DNA of 64,000 nucleotides from the sequence record NC_052653.1; one strand, given 5' to 3'. The notes beneath the pieces were generated by a model, which was given only the letters and a program-made list of their open reading frames with translations, ran no database searches and was not told the origin of the DNA. This document shows positions 9,778 to 27,062 of the stretch, piece after piece (within the stretch, counting starts at the first letter, position 1; every line of letters starts with the position of its first letter). The DNA comes from Escherichia phage vB_vPM_PD06. Both the position numbers and the translations under genes were made by a program.

Positions 9778-9854
9778 ATAATAAGTACACCACTGTAAGA
9801 AGCCTCAATGTGCTATTGACAGTTAACCAAGTCTACTCCTTGGATGGTGTTATT

Positions 9855-9929
9855 TGGTGCAGAGAGATGGTAACGATCCATCCTTTCTACCTTTTCAGGG
9901 TAGCACTAATCCGTCTCAGCTATCTCTGC
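9855..9929 (-). tRNA. tRNA-Phe (anticodon GAA)
   Basis: Acceptor GCAGAGA/TCTCTGC, anticodon arm CTACC-CTGAAAA-GGTAG, non-canonical T-loop ATCGTTA, CCA encoded. Confidence 0.65.
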
Positions 9930-9934
9930 AAATT

Positions 9935-10010
9935 TGGTCAGTGCGGCAGGACTCGAACCTGCGACCTGAAGCGTCCAAGGCTCCCACGCTACCAACTGCG
10001 CTACGCACTG
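9935..10010 (-). tRNA. tRNA-Pro (anticodon TGG)
   Basis: Acceptor CAGTGCG/CGCACTG, anticodon loop CTTGGAC, T-arm GCAGG-TTCGAGT-CCTGC, CCA encoded. Confidence 0.8.
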
Positions 10011-10017
10011 TAAATCT

Positions 10018-10092
10018 TGGCTGGAGATCTAGGAATCGAACCTAGTCATCACGACTTCAAAGGCCGTTGCCTTCCCACTAGGCTAATCTCCA
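10018..10092 (-). tRNA. tRNA-Gln (anticodon TTG)
   Basis: Acceptor TGGAGAT/ATCTCCA, anticodon arm ACGGC-CTTTGAA-GTCGT, T-arm CTAGG-TTCGATT-CCTAG, CCA encoded. Confidence 0.8.
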
Positions 10093-10523
10093 ATAAATTA
10101 CTTCAGTGTTACCACAAAGTGACGAACTGCTTTTCGTGCAGCAGAAGCCAGAGGCTTAGCATACTTAAGTTCATCTTTTTCCATTATAAATTCTCTTTTA
10201 AATGAAAATGCAGGACTTATTGGCATTGCCTGCGCAAGCCCTCAAGGGGAACATAGGTTTTTGGATATTTAACGACCAGGATAACCATAAACCCGTCATC
10301 ATTCACATTCAAGAGGTACACCATAAAACTGCCGGGGTCTTAAAACTATAATGATTCGCAAATCATTAATCAGACAGTTCGATGGCTCCTCGATTTTAGC
10401 TCACACTAAGGCAGTGAATCTCCAATAAACTAAAAAATCACTTAAAAAGAACCGCTAGAGTTTGAAGGAGAAAACCATGAGCGAAAAGAGAAATTTTCTC
10501 TAGCGATTCCATTTAAATAATCT

Positions 10524-10598
10524 TGGAGCGAGTAACAGGACTTGAACCTGCACCTGGAGGGTGGAAACCTCATATGCTACCATTAACACTATACCCGC
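10524..10598 (-). tRNA. tRNA-Gly (anticodon TCC)
   Basis: Acceptor GCGGGTA/TACTCGC, anticodon loop TTTCCAC, T-arm GCAGG-TTCAAGT-CCTGT, CCA encoded. Confidence 0.75.
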
Positions 10599-10653
10599 TT
10601 AACAATATTACTCTAACATACTATTAGCCCCTTTGTCAAGAGGCTTTTGATAC

Positions 10654-10983
10654 TTATTTTAAAATAGTAGATGCACCACGTCTGTTTAGATATGCAATAG
10701 TAAAGTCCAAATCACCTATTTCTTCAGGTTCCCACTGACCTTCTAAGCCATAACAAGAACAATGATATGCGTGTACTTCATAAAACAAAGATGTTTTCAT
10801 ATCATAAAAATAAACGTGAGATTCACCTTCATAATATGCACAATCATAAGTGGCAGAAAGAATTACAATGTTATCCTTATCTAACTCTACTTCATAATAT
10901 CTTTCAACATCTTCAATATCATCAAAACCATCGAAAACATTGATATTAAAATATTTCTCTAACTCTTTTTCTGTCACATACAC
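10654..10983 (-). CDS. Hypothetical protein embedded in tRNA array
   Basis: 109-aa ORF between tRNA-Gly and tRNA-Thr; Cys/Tyr-rich; no motif recognised. Confidence 0.5.
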   Translation of the reverse strand: MYVTEKELEKYFNINVFDGFDDIEDVERYYEVELDKDNIVILSATYDCAYYEGESHVYFYDMKTSLFYEVHAYHCSCYGLEGQWEPEEIGDLDFTIAYLNRRGASTILK

Positions 10984-10990
10984 TCCTTTA

Positions 10991-11065
10991 GAGTTAAAAT
11001 TGGTGCTCCCACAAGGACTCGAACCCTGATAAGTTGCTTACAAGGCAACCGTAATAGCCGTTATA
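10991..11065 (-). tRNA. tRNA-Thr (anticodon TGT)
   Basis: Acceptor GCTCCTA/TGGGAGC, anticodon arm GTTGC-CTTGTAA-GCAAC, T-loop TTCGAGT, CCA encoded. Confidence 0.8.
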
Positions 11066-11071
11066 CGATAG

Positions 11072-11148
11072 GAGCAATACTTGGACTCGGCAGGATTCGA
11101 TACCTGCAATTCCAGAAGCCTCTTGGCGACTGGGGGTTTACCTTAACT
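11072..11148 (-). tRNA. tRNA-like element, identity undetermined
   Basis: Acceptor GGACTTG/CGAGTCC pairs well; T-arm-like GCAGG-TATCGAAT-CCTGC with 8-nt loop; no canonical anticodon arm found by hand; CCA not encoded. Confidence 0.3.
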
Positions 11149-11155
11149 CTACAAG

Positions 11156-11240
11156 TCCATAATTCTGGCGATGGATCAAGGATTTGAACCTTGCTAGAAC
11201 TTTCGTTCACGGATTAACAGTCCGTCGCCCAACCACTAGG
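11156..11240 (-). tRNA. tRNA with anticodon GTT (Asn-type) and long extra arm
   Basis: Acceptor GATGGAT/ATCCATC, anticodon arm ACGGA-CTGTTAA-TCCGT, 15-nt variable region containing hairpin GAAC-GAAA-GTTC, T-loop TTCAAAT, CCA encoded. Confidence 0.55.
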
Positions 11241-11247
11241 CCAATCC

Positions 11248-11334
11248 ATCTTTAATTTGGTGCAGGTAGTTGGACTCGAACCAACGAAGCCCCGAAGGGC
11301 AAGAGATTTACAGTCTCCAGCAATTGCCGCTATG
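11248..11334 (-). tRNA. tRNA-Tyr (anticodon GTA)
   Basis: Acceptor GTAGGTA/TACCTGC, anticodon arm GGAGA-CTGTAAA-TCTCT, long variable arm, T-loop TTCGAGT, CCA encoded. Confidence 0.8.
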
Positions 11335-11339
11335 CGATA

Positions 11340-11415
11340 CCTACGTGTTTGGTACATCGTGAAGGATTCGAACCTTCGACCTTGGAGTTAAAAGCACCTT
11401 GCTCTACCAACTAAG
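11340..11415 (-). tRNA. tRNA-Lys (anticodon TTT)
   Basis: Perfect acceptor ACATCGT/ACGATGT, D-arm GCTT-AGTTGGTA-GAGC, anticodon loop CTTTTAA (stem has two mismatches), T-arm GAAGG-TTCGAAT-CCTTC, CCA encoded. Confidence 0.6.
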
Positions 11416-11559
11416 CTAACGATGTATAAATTATCTTTAAAATAGCCAGTGTTTGCGGCACTTAGCTATGAAGTATTGGGGTATCGGTAAAGTGGTTACC
11501 GCCACTTGCCGAAAGTTTACTCTGCTAAAGTAAGATTACAAGCTACATTAAAGATAACT

Positions 11560-11645
11560 TGGCGGTAGATGTAGGACTTGAACCTACACGCCGTTTCCGA
11601 CGACAGTTTAGCAAACTGTTGTGGCTACCATTTCACCAATCTACC
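11560..11645 (-). tRNA. tRNA-Ser (anticodon GCT)
   Basis: Acceptor GGTAGAT/ATCTACC, anticodon arm ACAGT-TTGCTAA-ACTGT, long variable arm, T-loop TTCAAGT, CCA encoded. Confidence 0.8.
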
Positions 11646-11653
11646 GTTCTTAA

Positions 11654-11806
11654 TTATTCAAAACAACCGGAATCTTTTTGTTCTGCTTTTACCATACGAA
11701 TATTTTTACCATCTTCAGATTGTTGAAGATTAGAATACTCATAAACAACTTTATTATCTACAATCTTAACTCCGGTAACAACCTGTCCAATAGTTTTATA
11801 ATTCAT
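11654..11806 (-). CDS. Small hypothetical protein
   Basis: About 50-aa ORF from ATG (MNYKTIG...) with AGGAG upstream; the longer track ORF would overlap tRNA-Ser. Confidence 0.35.
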   Translation of the reverse strand: MNYKTIGQVVTGVKIVDNKVVYEYSNLQQSEDGKNIRMVKAEQKDSGCFE

Positions 11807-11824
11807 AAAGCTCCTAGTTGAATT

Positions 11825-11914
11825 TGGAGGAAGATAATGGAGTCGAACCATCACCGTATCGCTACAATGGGCCAGGGTTCAAACCTGGTTGCGCACCGCT
11901 GCGCCCTACCTTCC
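11825..11914 (-). tRNA. tRNA-Ser (anticodon TGA)
   Basis: Acceptor GGAAGGT/ATCTTCC, anticodon arm CCAGG-TTTGAAC-CCTGG, long variable arm, T-arm GATGG-TTCGACT-CCATT, CCA encoded. Confidence 0.7.
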
Positions 11915-11975
11915 CGTTATCATACTTTAAATCTAACATAAAACTATCTTGCTTGTCAAGTAGTTTTTAAAACTT

Positions 11976-12057
11976 TTTGGTCGGGGTGACAGGATTCGAA
12001 CCTGCATACTCCAATTACTCGGTTAACGCCTGATTAGAAGTCAGGTGAGATACACCC
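11976..12057 (-). tRNA. Atypical tRNA-like gene, possibly Arg (TCT)
   Basis: Perfect acceptor CGGGGTG/CACCCCG, T-arm GCAGG-TTCGAAT-CCTGT, CCA encoded, hairpin CCTGA-CTTCTAA-TCAGG; no room for a normal D-arm. Confidence 0.4.
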
Positions 12058-12239
12058 CGTTTTCACAGTAACTATAACAAAAAACTAAGTGAATGTCAAG
12101 ATATTTTTACTAAAATTATTATTTAAATTGAAGCCTAGTTATGGAATCGAACCATATTTCGTATTTAGTTAGACAAAGCGGTCTAACATATTTTTCAGGC
12201 TTTGATGGCCTCGGAATTACCAAATACCCTACTAGGCGT

Positions 12240-12325
12240 TGGTGCAAGTGGAGGGATTCGAACCCTCAATCATTTAAGCGTTGCGTTTTAAGCACAATGT
12301 GTATCACCAATTCCACCACACTTGC
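12240..12325 (-). tRNA. tRNA-Leu (anticodon TAA)
   Basis: Perfect acceptor GCAAGTG/CACTTGC, anticodon arm TTGTG-CTTAAAA-CGCAA, long variable arm, T-arm GAGGG-TTCGAAT-CCCTC, CCA encoded. Confidence 0.75.
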
Positions 12326-12356
12326 ATATAGGAGATGCATAGCATCTCCTTTTAAA

Positions 12357-12432
12357 TGGTGGTTCCCCAGGGTTACAATCCCTGCCCTCGACACTTATGA
12401 GGTGTGCGCTCTCGTCAGTGAGCTATGGAACC
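12357..12432 (-). tRNA. tRNA with CAT anticodon (Met or Ile2), non-canonical T-loop
   Basis: D-arm GCTC-ACTGACGA-GAGC, anticodon loop CTCATAA, T-arm CAGGG-ATTGTAA-CCCTG, acceptor GGTTCCA/GGGAACC, CCA encoded. Confidence 0.65.
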
Positions 12433-23455: not shown

Positions 23456-23478
23456 AAGCCCCTTCGGGGGCTTATTGG
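23456..23478 (+). terminator. Rho-independent terminator (weak U-tract)
   Basis: AAGCCCC-TTCG-GGGGCTT hairpin right after stop. Confidence 0.5.
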
Positions 23479-23485
23479 AGGTATT

Positions 23486-24733: not shown

Positions 24734-24946
24734 ATGAAAAAACTTCTTGTCGGTTTACTTCTAGTAATCAGTTCTTATTCTTATGCTGGTCAAATAACTT
24801 TAATTAATTCTGGAGAACAAGTTTCTGGAAGTACAAAATACTGTTTTTACTCTAACGGTATGTACGACAAGGTTATAGAGGTTTCTGCAAGTCGTCAGTG
24901 TCCCTACACACGAACATTCTCAACAGAGAGTTCAGATGATGAATAG
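24734..24946 (+). CDS. Small secreted protein
   Basis: N-terminal signal peptide MKKLLVGLLLVISSYSYAG; 70 aa; two Cys; acidic C-terminus. Confidence 0.5.
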   Translation: MKKLLVGLLLVISSYSYAGQITLINSGEQVSGSTKYCFYSNGMYDKVIEVSASRQCPYTRTFSTESSDDE

Positions 24947-25038
24947 GAGGTAATATTAGCGGTTACATTTTAATCCAACCGGAAGACCTGCACAAATATG
25001 TTGACGAGAACACAATTCTTGCAATAGACTACGATCAA

Positions 25039-26073
25039 GTGGCGTTCCAAGCATCTTCGGCTTTAGAACAAAGAAAAATCCACGCTGTACACAAGGCTTC
25101 CGGTAATGTAAAAGAGTTTGAAACAAGAACAGATTTTTGGGGTAAATCTTCAAAAAATATTGGAGGATGGTTAGGAGCACTTAACGCGCAACGCGAAGCT
25201 GCTGGTAAGAAGTTGTTCTCTAGAGAAGATTTTGAAATAAAAGATGTTCAAATAGTCCCAGATAATATTTCTTTTACGTTTCAAGCTGCAAAGACAAAAA
25301 TAACCCAGATGATGGATCACCTAAAACTTCAAAAGTATTGCGGTGTCATCGGGGTAGGAAAAACCTTCCGGCATTCTTTCAAAATGCCAAAAGAATATAA
25401 ATCAGAACGATCAGATTTAAGACCAATCCATTTATCAGATACTAAAGATTATCTAGTTGAAAAACATAACGGTGACGTTGTTACTGGTATTGAGGCAGAT
25501 GATGCTTTAGAAATCTATGGATATGCAGGGTATAAAGCCTACAAGGAAACTGGTAAGTTTTCTCATATTGTAGCATCTATCGACAAAGATAGCTTGCACA
25601 CACCAAGTTTACTCTTTAACTTTTATAAAGAGGATGGTGTTTATAAAAATCCTTGTATTATTCTGATTGATGAATCTATTGGTGATATCTGGATCGTAGA
25701 AAAAGGTAAGAAAAAAGAAATTAAGGGTTGGGGTAGTTACTGGTTAGCTTATCAAATGCTAATGGGTGATAAGACAGATAGTATTCGACCTTACCAAGAT
25801 TTCGATGTTAAGTTTGGAGATATTACTTGCTTTAATCTTATTTCCAAATGTAAAACACAGGCTGAACTTTTTCAGACAGTTAAAGATCAGTATTATGAAT
25901 GGTTCCCAGATGGCGTTAAATTTACTTCTTGGGATGGTGAAGAAGTAGAGATGACAACTGACGAATGGATAGAGACAATTTTTCAGTTGGTATATATGAA
26001 ACGTTGGGCGAATGATGAAACAACTTTTGAAAGTATGCTACAAGCATATATTTCAGAGCAGGAGGAACATTGA
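25039..26073 (+). CDS. 5'-3' exonuclease / flap endonuclease
   Basis: Motifs GIEADDALEIYG and SIDKD; upstream frame stays open back to 24943 with no ATG, so true start is probably a non-ATG codon near 24955 just after AGGAGG. Confidence 0.6.
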   Translation: MAFQASSALEQRKIHAVHKASGNVKEFETRTDFWGKSSKNIGGWLGALNAQREAAGKKLFSREDFEIKDVQIVPDNISFTFQAAKTKITQMMDHLKLQKYCGVIGVGKTFRHSFKMPKEYKSERSDLRPIHLSDTKDYLVEKHNGDVVTGIEADDALEIYGYAGYKAYKETGKFSHIVASIDKDSLHTPSLLFNFYKEDGVYKNPCIILIDESIGDIWIVEKGKKKEIKGWGSYWLAYQMLMGDKTDSIRPYQDFDVKFGDITCFNLISKCKTQAELFQTVKDQYYEWFPDGVKFTSWDGEEVEMTTDEWIETIFQLVYMKRWANDETTFESMLQAYISEQEEH

Positions 26074-27032
26074 GTAAATTAACAGACGAACAGAAAGCCT
26101 TGATTGTATCTATGAAAGCACAAGGTTATTCTTCGCGTAAGATTGCACAAGAGGTGTTGGGAAGTTCTACTAAGAAGAGCACAGTAAATGATTACTTAGC
26201 TCGTGTAAATTCACCACATCGCGGTGCTCCGCAAGATAAAGGTGGGCCAGTAATTAAAATTATTGACGTAGAGACAGCACCTGAGATTGTGTATAGCTTC
26301 TCACGTTTCAAAGCCTTTATTGCACCTGAACAAGTTATTCGTCGAGGTTACTTGCTTTCCTATTCATCTGCTGATTTAGAAACAGGAGAAGTAGAAGGTA
26401 AGAACCTTAGCAATTACCCTCTGTTTGACATAGATCATACAGATGATTGGGAATTATGTCAAGATCTGTGGCACTTGCTTGACGATGCAGATATTGTGAT
26501 CGCGCACAACGGTATTAAGTTTGATAAGGCTTATATTAACCAACGTTTTGCTTTTCACGGTATGGAGCCACCATCACACTATGTTGTAATTGATACACTC
26601 AAGGTAGCTAAGAAGCAGTTTGCACTACCTTCTAATGCGCTTAAAGAAATGTGTTTGTATTTTGATACAGAAAACTTTAAACTTGATAATGAAGGTTTTC
26701 CTTTGTGGAAAGCATGTTGTGAAGGAGACAGACACGCCTTCTTCCGTATGCAAACATACAACGATGGTGATGTTGTTTCTCTCAGAGATCTTTACATCAA
26801 ACTTCGTGCGTGGATTCCACAACATCCTAACGTATCTGCATTCTATGACGATGAAAAACTTCGTTGTCCTCGTTGCGGTAAAGAGCACCTTGAAGTTGTT
26901 CCTGGTAAGGTTTACACAACAGCGGTTAGTACATTCCAAGTGCTAAGATGCACATCATGTAATAGCCTGTCTCGTGGACGTGTTAATTTGCGTAGCAAAG
27001 AGAAGCGTGTAAACACTGTTATTGGAATTTAA
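26070..27032 (+). CDS. HTH domain fused to DnaQ-like 3'-5' exonuclease with C-terminal zinc ribbon
   Basis: N-terminal HTH-like SSRKIAQEV; exonuclease motifs IDVETAPE and IAHNGIKFD; C-terminal CPRCG...CTSCN. Confidence 0.5.
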   Translation: MSKLTDEQKALIVSMKAQGYSSRKIAQEVLGSSTKKSTVNDYLARVNSPHRGAPQDKGGPVIKIIDVETAPEIVYSFSRFKAFIAPEQVIRRGYLLSYSSADLETGEVEGKNLSNYPLFDIDHTDDWELCQDLWHLLDDADIVIAHNGIKFDKAYINQRFAFHGMEPPSHYVVIDTLKVAKKQFALPSNALKEMCLYFDTENFKLDNEGFPLWKACCEGDRHAFFRMQTYNDGDVVSLRDLYIKLRAWIPQHPNVSAFYDDEKLRCPRCGKEHLEVVPGKVYTTAVSTFQVLRCTSCNSLSRGRVNLRSKEKRVNTVIGI

Positions 27033-27035
27033 TAA

Positions 27036-27062
27036 AAAGGGGCGAAAGCCCCTTTATTTTTG
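27036..27062 (+). terminator. Rho-independent terminator
   Basis: AAAGGGGC-GAAA-GCCCCTTT followed by ATTTTT. Confidence 0.7.

Follow-up and report, generated by a model that had tools for sequence, protein, structure and literature searches.

We examined the 5' end of the gene for a putative exonuclease in Escherichia phage vB_vPM_PD06, working from a 64,000-nucleotide stretch of its sequence record (NC_052653.1) that is referred to below, at its full length, as the window. This region of the window is 99-99.8% identical to E. coli phages of the genus Justusliebigvirus (phi92-like, Stephanstirmvirinae), in which the corresponding gene is known as phi92 gp085. According to the window sequence and its list of open reading frames (ORFs), the exonuclease frame is open from position 24943, and the first canonical start codon, a GTG at 25039, follows 96 nucleotides past this opening. 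The features that define the start region are the following.

24940-24942, plus strand: TGA in frame with the exonuclease gene, closing its reading frame on the 5' side and permitting no entry from further upstream
24945-24951, plus strand: Shine-Dalgarno sequence AGGAGGT (AGGAGG at 24945-24950), seven nucleotides complementary to the 3' end of 16S rRNA
24955-24957, plus strand: ATT, the proposed initiation codon, 4 nucleotides past the last G of the Shine-Dalgarno GGAGG
24955-26073, plus strand: revised coding sequence of 372 codons plus TGA, for a predicted 5'-3' exonuclease of the flap endonuclease (FEN) superfamily, homologous to phi92 gp085
25027-25035, plus strand: codons of D25-Y26-D27, at the end of strand beta1 and upstream of the annotated GTG
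25039-25041, plus strand: GTG, the database start, which becomes internal Val29 in the revised model and is an isoleucine codon in most relatives

A sequence-only reading of this DNA had proposed that the frame continues for 96 nucleotides upstream of GTG 25039 with no ATG, that an AGGAGG lies at 24945-24950, and that translation probably begins not at the GTG but at an unusual codon, for which ATT near 24955 was suggested. Re-reading the sequence bears out the first two points and extends the Shine-Dalgarno motif by one nucleotide, to AGGAGGT. Between the TGA at 24940-24942 and GTG 25039 the window holds no in-frame ATG, GTG or TTG, and the GTG itself is preceded by no Shine-Dalgarno sequence (gactacgatcaa GTG). 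Starting at ATT 24955 would add to the protein the residues ISGYILIQPEDLHKYVDENTILAIDYDQ, which then continue into VAFQASSA...

The spacing of the proposed ribosome-binding site was compared with that of the other genes of the window, by taking open frames of 100 codons or more, listing the candidate canonical starts within their first half and asking which have a GGAGG no more than 16 nucleotides upstream. Four nucleotides is the commonest spacing (11 of 30 candidate starts), and it is the spacing found at ATT 24955. A scan of the whole window for Shine-Dalgarno sequences placed before ATH (ATT, ATC or ATA) or CTG codons and followed by at least 80 open codons singled out the exonuclease gene as the only frame in which a Shine-Dalgarno sequence and an ATH codon occur with no canonical start within a few codons. 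No further ATH-started gene emerged from the window, since the other such sites have a canonical start 0-14 codons away or sit inside a longer ORF. The predicted RNA structure around the start is unremarkable (minimum free energy -15.3 kcal/mol, z-score -0.69). Judged from the 4-nucleotide spacing, the single occurrence in the window and the recurrence in every relative examined, the pairing of Shine-Dalgarno sequence and ATT is more than a product of chance.

This recurrence was established in 38 distinct start regions, drawn from GenBank, IMG/VR, ENA, JGI and Logan and representing a clade whose proteins are 47-100% identical; individual loci are denoted below by L numbers. The homologous start codon is ATT in 18 of them, ATC in 14, ATA in five (a count that includes L032, scored by eye) and CTG in one (L052), while ATG, GTG and TTG are found in none. 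In all relatives a Shine-Dalgarno sequence of the form GGAGG, GGGGG or GGGAG precedes the ATH or CTG codon by 4-5 nucleotides, with a flanking spacer that varies, and the codon for D25 comes 23-25 codons past the start in the 38 regions. The same start architecture is seen in GenBank, in 130 phage records, and again in metagenome sequences assembled independently. The proposal of a rare-codon start is thus strongly supported, at a fixed distance from the Shine-Dalgarno sequence, across the whole comparison.

Three kinds of evidence locate the boundary between noncoding and coding sequence at this codon, the third being the alignment with outgroup homologues described below. On the 5' side, an in-frame TAA directly adjoins the ATC in five lineages (L022, L041, L073, L075 and L079), an extra G in the Shine-Dalgarno run of L017 and L018 creates a TAG three codons upstream of the start, and differences in spacer length among lineages are not multiples of three. 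The adjoining stops and the non-triplet changes together indicate that the sequence 5' of the ATH codon is noncoding in the exonuclease frame. On the 3' side, codons 2-4 vary synonymously, with serine written as AGC, AGT, TCA or TCT, glycine by all four of its codons and tyrosine or phenylalanine as TAC, TAT, TTC or TTT. Pairwise comparison of the 20 codons that lead up to D25 gives 1192, 881 and 2236 differences at codon positions 1, 2 and 3, respectively. This excess at third positions, with the synonymous variation, indicates that the codons from codon 2 onward are translated.

Canonical codons offer no consistent alternative within the clade. In 26 of the 38 start regions none occurs at all before the D-x-D motif, and elsewhere their position is unconserved. 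Because these sporadic codons fall at differing positions, the N-termini assigned by gene callers scatter from one call to the next. The position of GTG 25039 is occupied by ATC, ATA or ATT in most relatives from Phapecoctavirus, the Klebsiella clade and metagenomes.

Outside the clade, canonical starts return at the same place. Outgroup homologues with 32-42% identity have ATG, GTG or TTG at a homologous Met-Gly/Ser/Ala-Tyr-Pro N-terminus, so that the initiator methionine of the outgroup aligns with the ATH codon, as is seen when GTG GGA TAT of Proteus phage Mydo is set against ATC GGC TAC of the Klebsiella clade. More distant family members start with ATG (KPP10, PAK_P4, Felix O1-like phages, KLEP7 and PH357) or GTG (ICP1). 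The homologues from Vequintavirinae (rV5-like phages, Mydo and Klebsiella K54_rec1) and other outgroups resemble the window gene in protein family, in the N-terminal layout Met-Gly/Ser-Tyr-Pro ... D-x-D and in the short spacing to the Shine-Dalgarno sequence. They differ in having canonical starts, many of them the weaker TTG or GTG, and are hence found by gene callers, whereas the Stephanstirmvirinae-like clade has shifted to non-canonical codons.

What lies between the two candidate starts is best appreciated from the protein. In hundreds of phages, homology detected by tblastn extends as far as residues 1-10 of the protein started at the ATT. An alignment of 44 homologues shows no variation at D25 or D27, two residues encoded 5' of the GTG, which itself encodes residue 29; E180, D182, D210, D212, D272 and D275 are also invariant and D183 is nearly so. 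An AlphaFold2 model built on the 44-sequence alignment (predicted local distance difference test, pLDDT, 96; predicted template modelling score, pTM, 0.89) contains a strand at residues 16-25 that ends at D25 and is followed by a helix at 26-37. Since this strand and both aspartates lie upstream, a GTG-started protein would be missing one strand of the core and two acidic residues that never vary among the homologues. The sequence-only reading had likened the upstream residues to the conserved N-terminal strand of 5'-3' exonucleases, a likeness with which alignment, model and structural search all agree.

The structural search, made with Foldseek against the PDB, returned as its top matches solely structures of the 5'-nuclease/FEN superfamily. 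Ranks 1-12, which include plastid exonuclease 9l55, E. coli ExoIX 3zdc and its relatives, and the T5 D15 FEN structures 5hp4 and 1exn, have probability 1.0 and E-values from 1.5e-6 to 3e-4; rank 13 is M. smegmatis Pol1 (6vde; probability 0.96, E 3e-3). A profile search of the PDB yielded just a weak match, to Taq polymerase (E 0.17), with IEADD, DKD and GDxTD of the window protein aligning with YEADD, DKD and GDESDN of Taq. The window protein has no match to Pfam PF02739 or PF01367 at E <= 1 and none in NCBIfam; it does match phrog_107, 'exonuclease', and a transitive link to Pfam runs through homologue P0067, which matches the query at E 1.8e-8 and scores 35.5 bits against PF02739, above the cut-off of 34.3. 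The earlier name 'flap endonuclease' stands at the level of superfamily and fold only, and finds no Pfam match for the protein itself. On the predicted fold and transitive homology, the family assignment would be that of a FEN-superfamily 5'-3' nuclease. The window protein has in common with this superfamily (T5 D15, ExoIX, the 5' nuclease domain of Pol I and T7 gp6) a PIN-like fold and the beta1 aspartate, D25, and its acidic clusters E180/D182/D183, D210/D212 and D272/D275 parallel YEADD, DKD and GDxSDN of Taq. It differs in that identity is just 11-14% and in its large insertions, which bring it to 372 residues as opposed to about 250-290.

The exonuclease gene is tightly packed between two neighbours, whose junctions with it bear on how it may be translated.

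24734-24946, plus strand: upstream small ORF of 70 residues, phi92 gp086-like, matching phrog_4641, function not assigned, with a SignalP note in the phi92 record
26060-26073, plus strand: junction with the next gene, consisting of AGGAGG (26060-26065), aaca and a TTG at 26070 that overlaps the stop TGA (26071-26073) as TTGA

The stop codon of the gp086-like ORF, TAG 24944-24946, overlaps the exonuclease Shine-Dalgarno sequence and ends 8 nucleotides before the ATT. A stop codon of an upstream ORF is found 8-17 nucleotides before the ATH codon in all eight lineages checked (the window, L004, L005, L012, L024, L026, L029 and L031). L029 and L031 carry another gene at the upstream position; in L031 it encodes a methyltransferase whose TAG overlaps the Shine-Dalgarno sequence. 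The reading frame of the gp086-like ORF relative to the exonuclease also varies, being offset by one base in the window, in frame in others, and shifted by the extra G in L017 and L018. No terminator-like site was found in the interval that separates the two ORFs, and promoter-like matches are no commoner there than in shuffled sequence. For the gp086-like ORF itself a signal peptide is predicted; its cysteines are conserved, and it lies between the RdgC-like and exonuclease genes in most relatives. In L026 an uncalled ORF of 34 codons (597-701), encoding a hydrophobic, membrane-helix-like peptide, separates the gp086-like ORF from the exonuclease gene and ends 15 nucleotides before the ATT.

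On the downstream side, the gene for a DnaQ-like 'DNA polymerase exonuclease subunit' (26070-27032) repeats the layout of the ATT site, with AGGAGG, four nucleotides and a weak start. From this arrangement the exonuclease gene is probably translationally coupled to the DnaQ-like gene, a replication gene that is itself weakly started. Terminator-like hairpins at 23456-23481 (which scores on both strands) and 27036-27055 flank a module of five genes, and a small ORF and the RdgC-like, gp086-like, exonuclease and DnaQ-like genes may form one transcription unit. The start of the RdgC-like gene differs among GenBank records, TTG 23754 being chosen in some and ATG 23775, with an AGGAG-type motif just upstream, in others.

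Public annotation has dealt with the exonuclease start in a consistent manner. All 16 annotated GenBank records examined shorten the gene, by 11, 28 or 143 residues, and none uses the ATT. The six Justusliebigvirus records begin at GTG 25039, 28 residues short, which gives a protein of 344 residues; the phi92 record comments on this start with 'No RBS identified; weak Prodigal statistics'. Eight records from Phapecoctavirus and the Klebsiella clade call the gene from a methionine 143 residues in, and the two phiWec181/188 records begin at a TTG at codon 12. The truncations of 28 and 143 residues remove active-site aspartates, and an enzyme shortened in either way probably lacks activity. Structure predictions, expression constructs and family models derived from these entries start from the shortened enzyme. 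The gene thus provides a clean comparative case in which phage gene callers restricted to ATG, GTG and TTG miss genuine genes or N-termini. Phapecoctavirus/Klebsiella-clade records fill the uncalled 5' third of the gene with short ORFs labelled 'hypothetical protein', most of them on the minus strand (L005 675-1040, L015 1353-1718 and L016 1497-1619); these are almost certainly spurious.

Taken together, the data show where the reading frame is bounded, that the Shine-Dalgarno sequence is conserved along with its distance from the start, that a coding signature sets in at codon 2, and that the predicted fold carries invariant acidic residues. Comparison of the start regions makes initiation of the exonuclease gene at ATT 24955 very likely, and we hold with equally good confidence the fuller explanation, in which AUU 24955, directed by AGGAGGU, would be the start of a 372-residue FEN-superfamily nuclease. 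Decoding of the AUU as formyl-methionine (fMet), a reduced output and an adaptive role for the arrangement are what we infer from these observations.

Of the other explanations, the one that fares best is a variant of this start rather than its competitor. In this variant ATT 24955 would be used mainly or solely by ribosomes fresh from termination at TAG 24944-24946, and expression would depend on translation of the upstream ORF instead of on independent initiation driven by the Shine-Dalgarno sequence; we regard this as possible, if the less likely case. It is favoured by the nearby upstream stop seen in all eight lineages, including those with another ORF in that place (L031, L026), and by the example of infC, whose AUU sits 3 nucleotides past the thrS stop. 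Coupling also approximately doubled the output of AUU in a reporter (PMC3592434). The conserved, strong Shine-Dalgarno sequence at the commonest spacing suggests, however, that de novo initiation is possible too, and tight gene packing is so generic in phages that the proximity of a stop is weak evidence by itself. Overexpression of initiation factor 3 (IF3) also depresses re-initiation (PMC2268962), so that the two routes are hard to tell apart from sequence.

A start at some near-cognate codon a little further downstream is improbable. ATT 24967, ATC 24973 and CTG 24988 are all in frame, and the last of these corresponds to the TTG that is the annotated start in phiWec181/188, but they lie 16, 22 and 37 nucleotides from the Shine-Dalgarno sequence, far beyond the spacing of other window genes. 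Nor is there a conserved near-cognate among them, as 24967 is replaced by AAA, TTT, ACA or GAA and 24988 by CTT, TTA, CTA or CTC in other lineages. The synonymous variation of codons 2-4, which lie upstream of 24967, indicates moreover that these codons are translated.

It is less probable still that the databases are right and that translation begins at GTG 25039, the upstream frame being an untranslated leader of a 344-residue protein. This codon is the first canonical start of the frame and has been adopted in every one of the six Justusliebigvirus records. Against this, it has no Shine-Dalgarno sequence, the phi92 annotators having found no ribosome-binding site (RBS), it gives way to ATC, ATA or ATT in most relatives, and the 28 codons upstream of it, with D25, D27 and the core beta-strand, are under purifying selection at the protein level. 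The earlier doubt about the GTG is supported on each of these counts.

Slimmer again is the chance that the N-terminal segment is reached by recoding, through readthrough or a programmed frameshift from the gp086-like ORF, to give a fusion protein. In the Klebsiella clade and in phAPEC8-type phages the two ORFs do share a frame, with a single stop between them, and a 444-residue database 'fusion' protein (P0002) exists. Nevertheless, the frame relation of the two ORFs is unconserved, the upstream gene is another one in L029 and L031, and a secretion signal fused to a replication nuclease would make little biological sense. P0002 (48 member sequences; L021 801-2135) was considered as a gp086-exonuclease fusion and rejected as an artefact, in which the gene caller read the junction TAG in the DNA as glutamine; the translation of the locus differs from the query. 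A pseudogene in decay, or an error of sequencing or assembly, favoured by the absence of a canonical start and nothing more, can be dismissed with near certainty, for the architecture is repeated in the GenBank records and the independent metagenome assemblies mentioned above and the full-length frame is intact, under strong purifying selection and predicted with a confident fold.

Returning to the AUU start, its mechanism might operate as follows. The strong AGGAGGU 4 nucleotides upstream would direct ribosomes to AUU 24955, where fMet-tRNA would read the codon with a mismatch at its third position. Discrimination by IF3 would then hold translation several-fold below the level of an AUG, possibly in response to IF3 or to the state of the ribosome, and ribosomes ending at TAG 24944-24946 would probably add to initiation by re-initiating at the AUU. 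The product would be the 372-residue nuclease, whose first 28 residues include strand beta1 as well as D25 and D27, aspartates of the metal-ligand type. A weak start could thereby limit the dose of the nuclease and, because the DnaQ-like gene starts at the overlapping TTGA, may limit the dose of that subunit too.

The codons concerned have precedents in bacteria. AUU, AUC and AUA are recognised rare starts, and the AUU/AUC of infC is the target of IF3 autoregulation (PMC5499595). In one system AUA gave approximately 7.5% and AUU or AUC approximately 5% of the output of AUG (PMC5499595), and another reporter put AUU at 6-8 times below AUG in strength, its output about doubling on coupling to an upstream cistron (PMC3592434). 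A second AUU gene, pcnB, has translationally limited expression according to the account of Binns & Masters 2002 given in PMC3592434. For infC and for reporters, output below that of AUG and sensitivity to IF3 are established (PMC5499595, PMC3592434, PMC2268962).

The window also contains 15 tRNA genes (9377-12432, minus strand), including Ile(GAU) and two with CAU anticodons. One of the latter, at 9599-9677, has an apparently unpaired C1/C72 and, by eye, no GGG:CCC anticodon stem; elongator Met, Ile2 and an initiator-like tRNA are candidates for its identity. A special phage-encoded initiator tRNA for AUH codons was considered and rejected, as none of the window tRNAs has, by eye, an initiator-type GGG:CCC anticodon stem.

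Several points weigh against the explanation that we prefer. The case for the AUU start rests on sequence comparison and a predicted fold. The absence of ATG across the clade comes from related, non-independent lineages, and the CTG of L052, an isoleucine-to-leucine change that would be conservative at the amino-acid level, is a single case and weak alone. The 7-nucleotide Shine-Dalgarno sequence and A/U-rich surroundings could offset the weak codon, so that output might not be low. Context does matter: when the initiation region was optimised, an mRNA starting with AUA behaved in vitro as did its AUG counterpart, and infC, for all its AUU start, is fairly abundant (both PMC5499595).

The pattern of change at the start codon nonetheless suggests that selection keeps it weak, since its third position drifts among T, C and A, with one CTG, and never yields ATG, GTG or TTG, down to 47% protein identity. 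The retention of a near-cognate start over this distance, with no canonical start in any of the 38 regions, argues that selection holds translation of the nuclease weak or conditional. A putative role of the ATT start as a throttle, which the sequence-only reading had raised, or as a sensor of IF3 is plausible.

A more far-reaching proposal, to which we give only tentative credence and which we consider rather unlikely, is that the near-cognate start is a selected regulatory device of the whole phage subfamily and its uncultured relatives. With IF3 discriminating against AUU, AUC, AUA and CUG, synthesis of the nuclease and, via TTGA, of the DnaQ-like subunit would track the IF3-to-ribosome state of the infected cell or, alternatively, the nuclease would stay below the level at which host defences detect it. 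If tracking of IF3 holds, output could rise as host translation collapses; if the device is indeed selected, bacteriophages would have their first described case of an obligate non-canonical start codon that spans a clade. E. coli K-12 is a host of phi92 and of phages of the BASEL collection such as JohannJBalmer/Bas62 and EmilieFrey. As regards detection by the host, sensing of phage exonucleases is mentioned for type I-A retrons (PMC12916289). No prior description of the non-canonical start of this exonuclease was found in the literature.

Among the closest known systems is infC of E. coli, which encodes IF3. Akin to the window gene, it has a conserved start of the AUU/AUC class behind a Shine-Dalgarno sequence, a few nucleotides past an upstream stop (thrS UAA GGU AUU), and IF3 discriminates against this weak codon (PMC5499595, PMC3592434). 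The product of infC being IF3 itself, its start codon closes an autoregulatory loop, whereas the phage nuclease is without obvious feedback. In function, the proposed throttle most resembles pcnB, the gene for poly(A) polymerase I, where the AUU is described as keeping a potentially harmful nucleic-acid enzyme scarce (Binns & Masters 2002, as related in PMC3592434). In contrast to the exonuclease start, which spans a phage subfamily and drifts among ATT, ATC, ATA and CTG, that of pcnB belongs to a chromosomal gene in a single lineage. Among phages, gene 26 of T4 reportedly has an internal AUU initiation site. That codon is said to serve as a secondary start for a shorter product, unlike the AUU of the window, which would be the sole start of what looks like an essential enzyme and is conserved across its clade. 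The proposed mechanism is thus already known from infC and pcnB; what is new is a clade-wide phage example of it, together with its consistent mis-annotation in the records examined.

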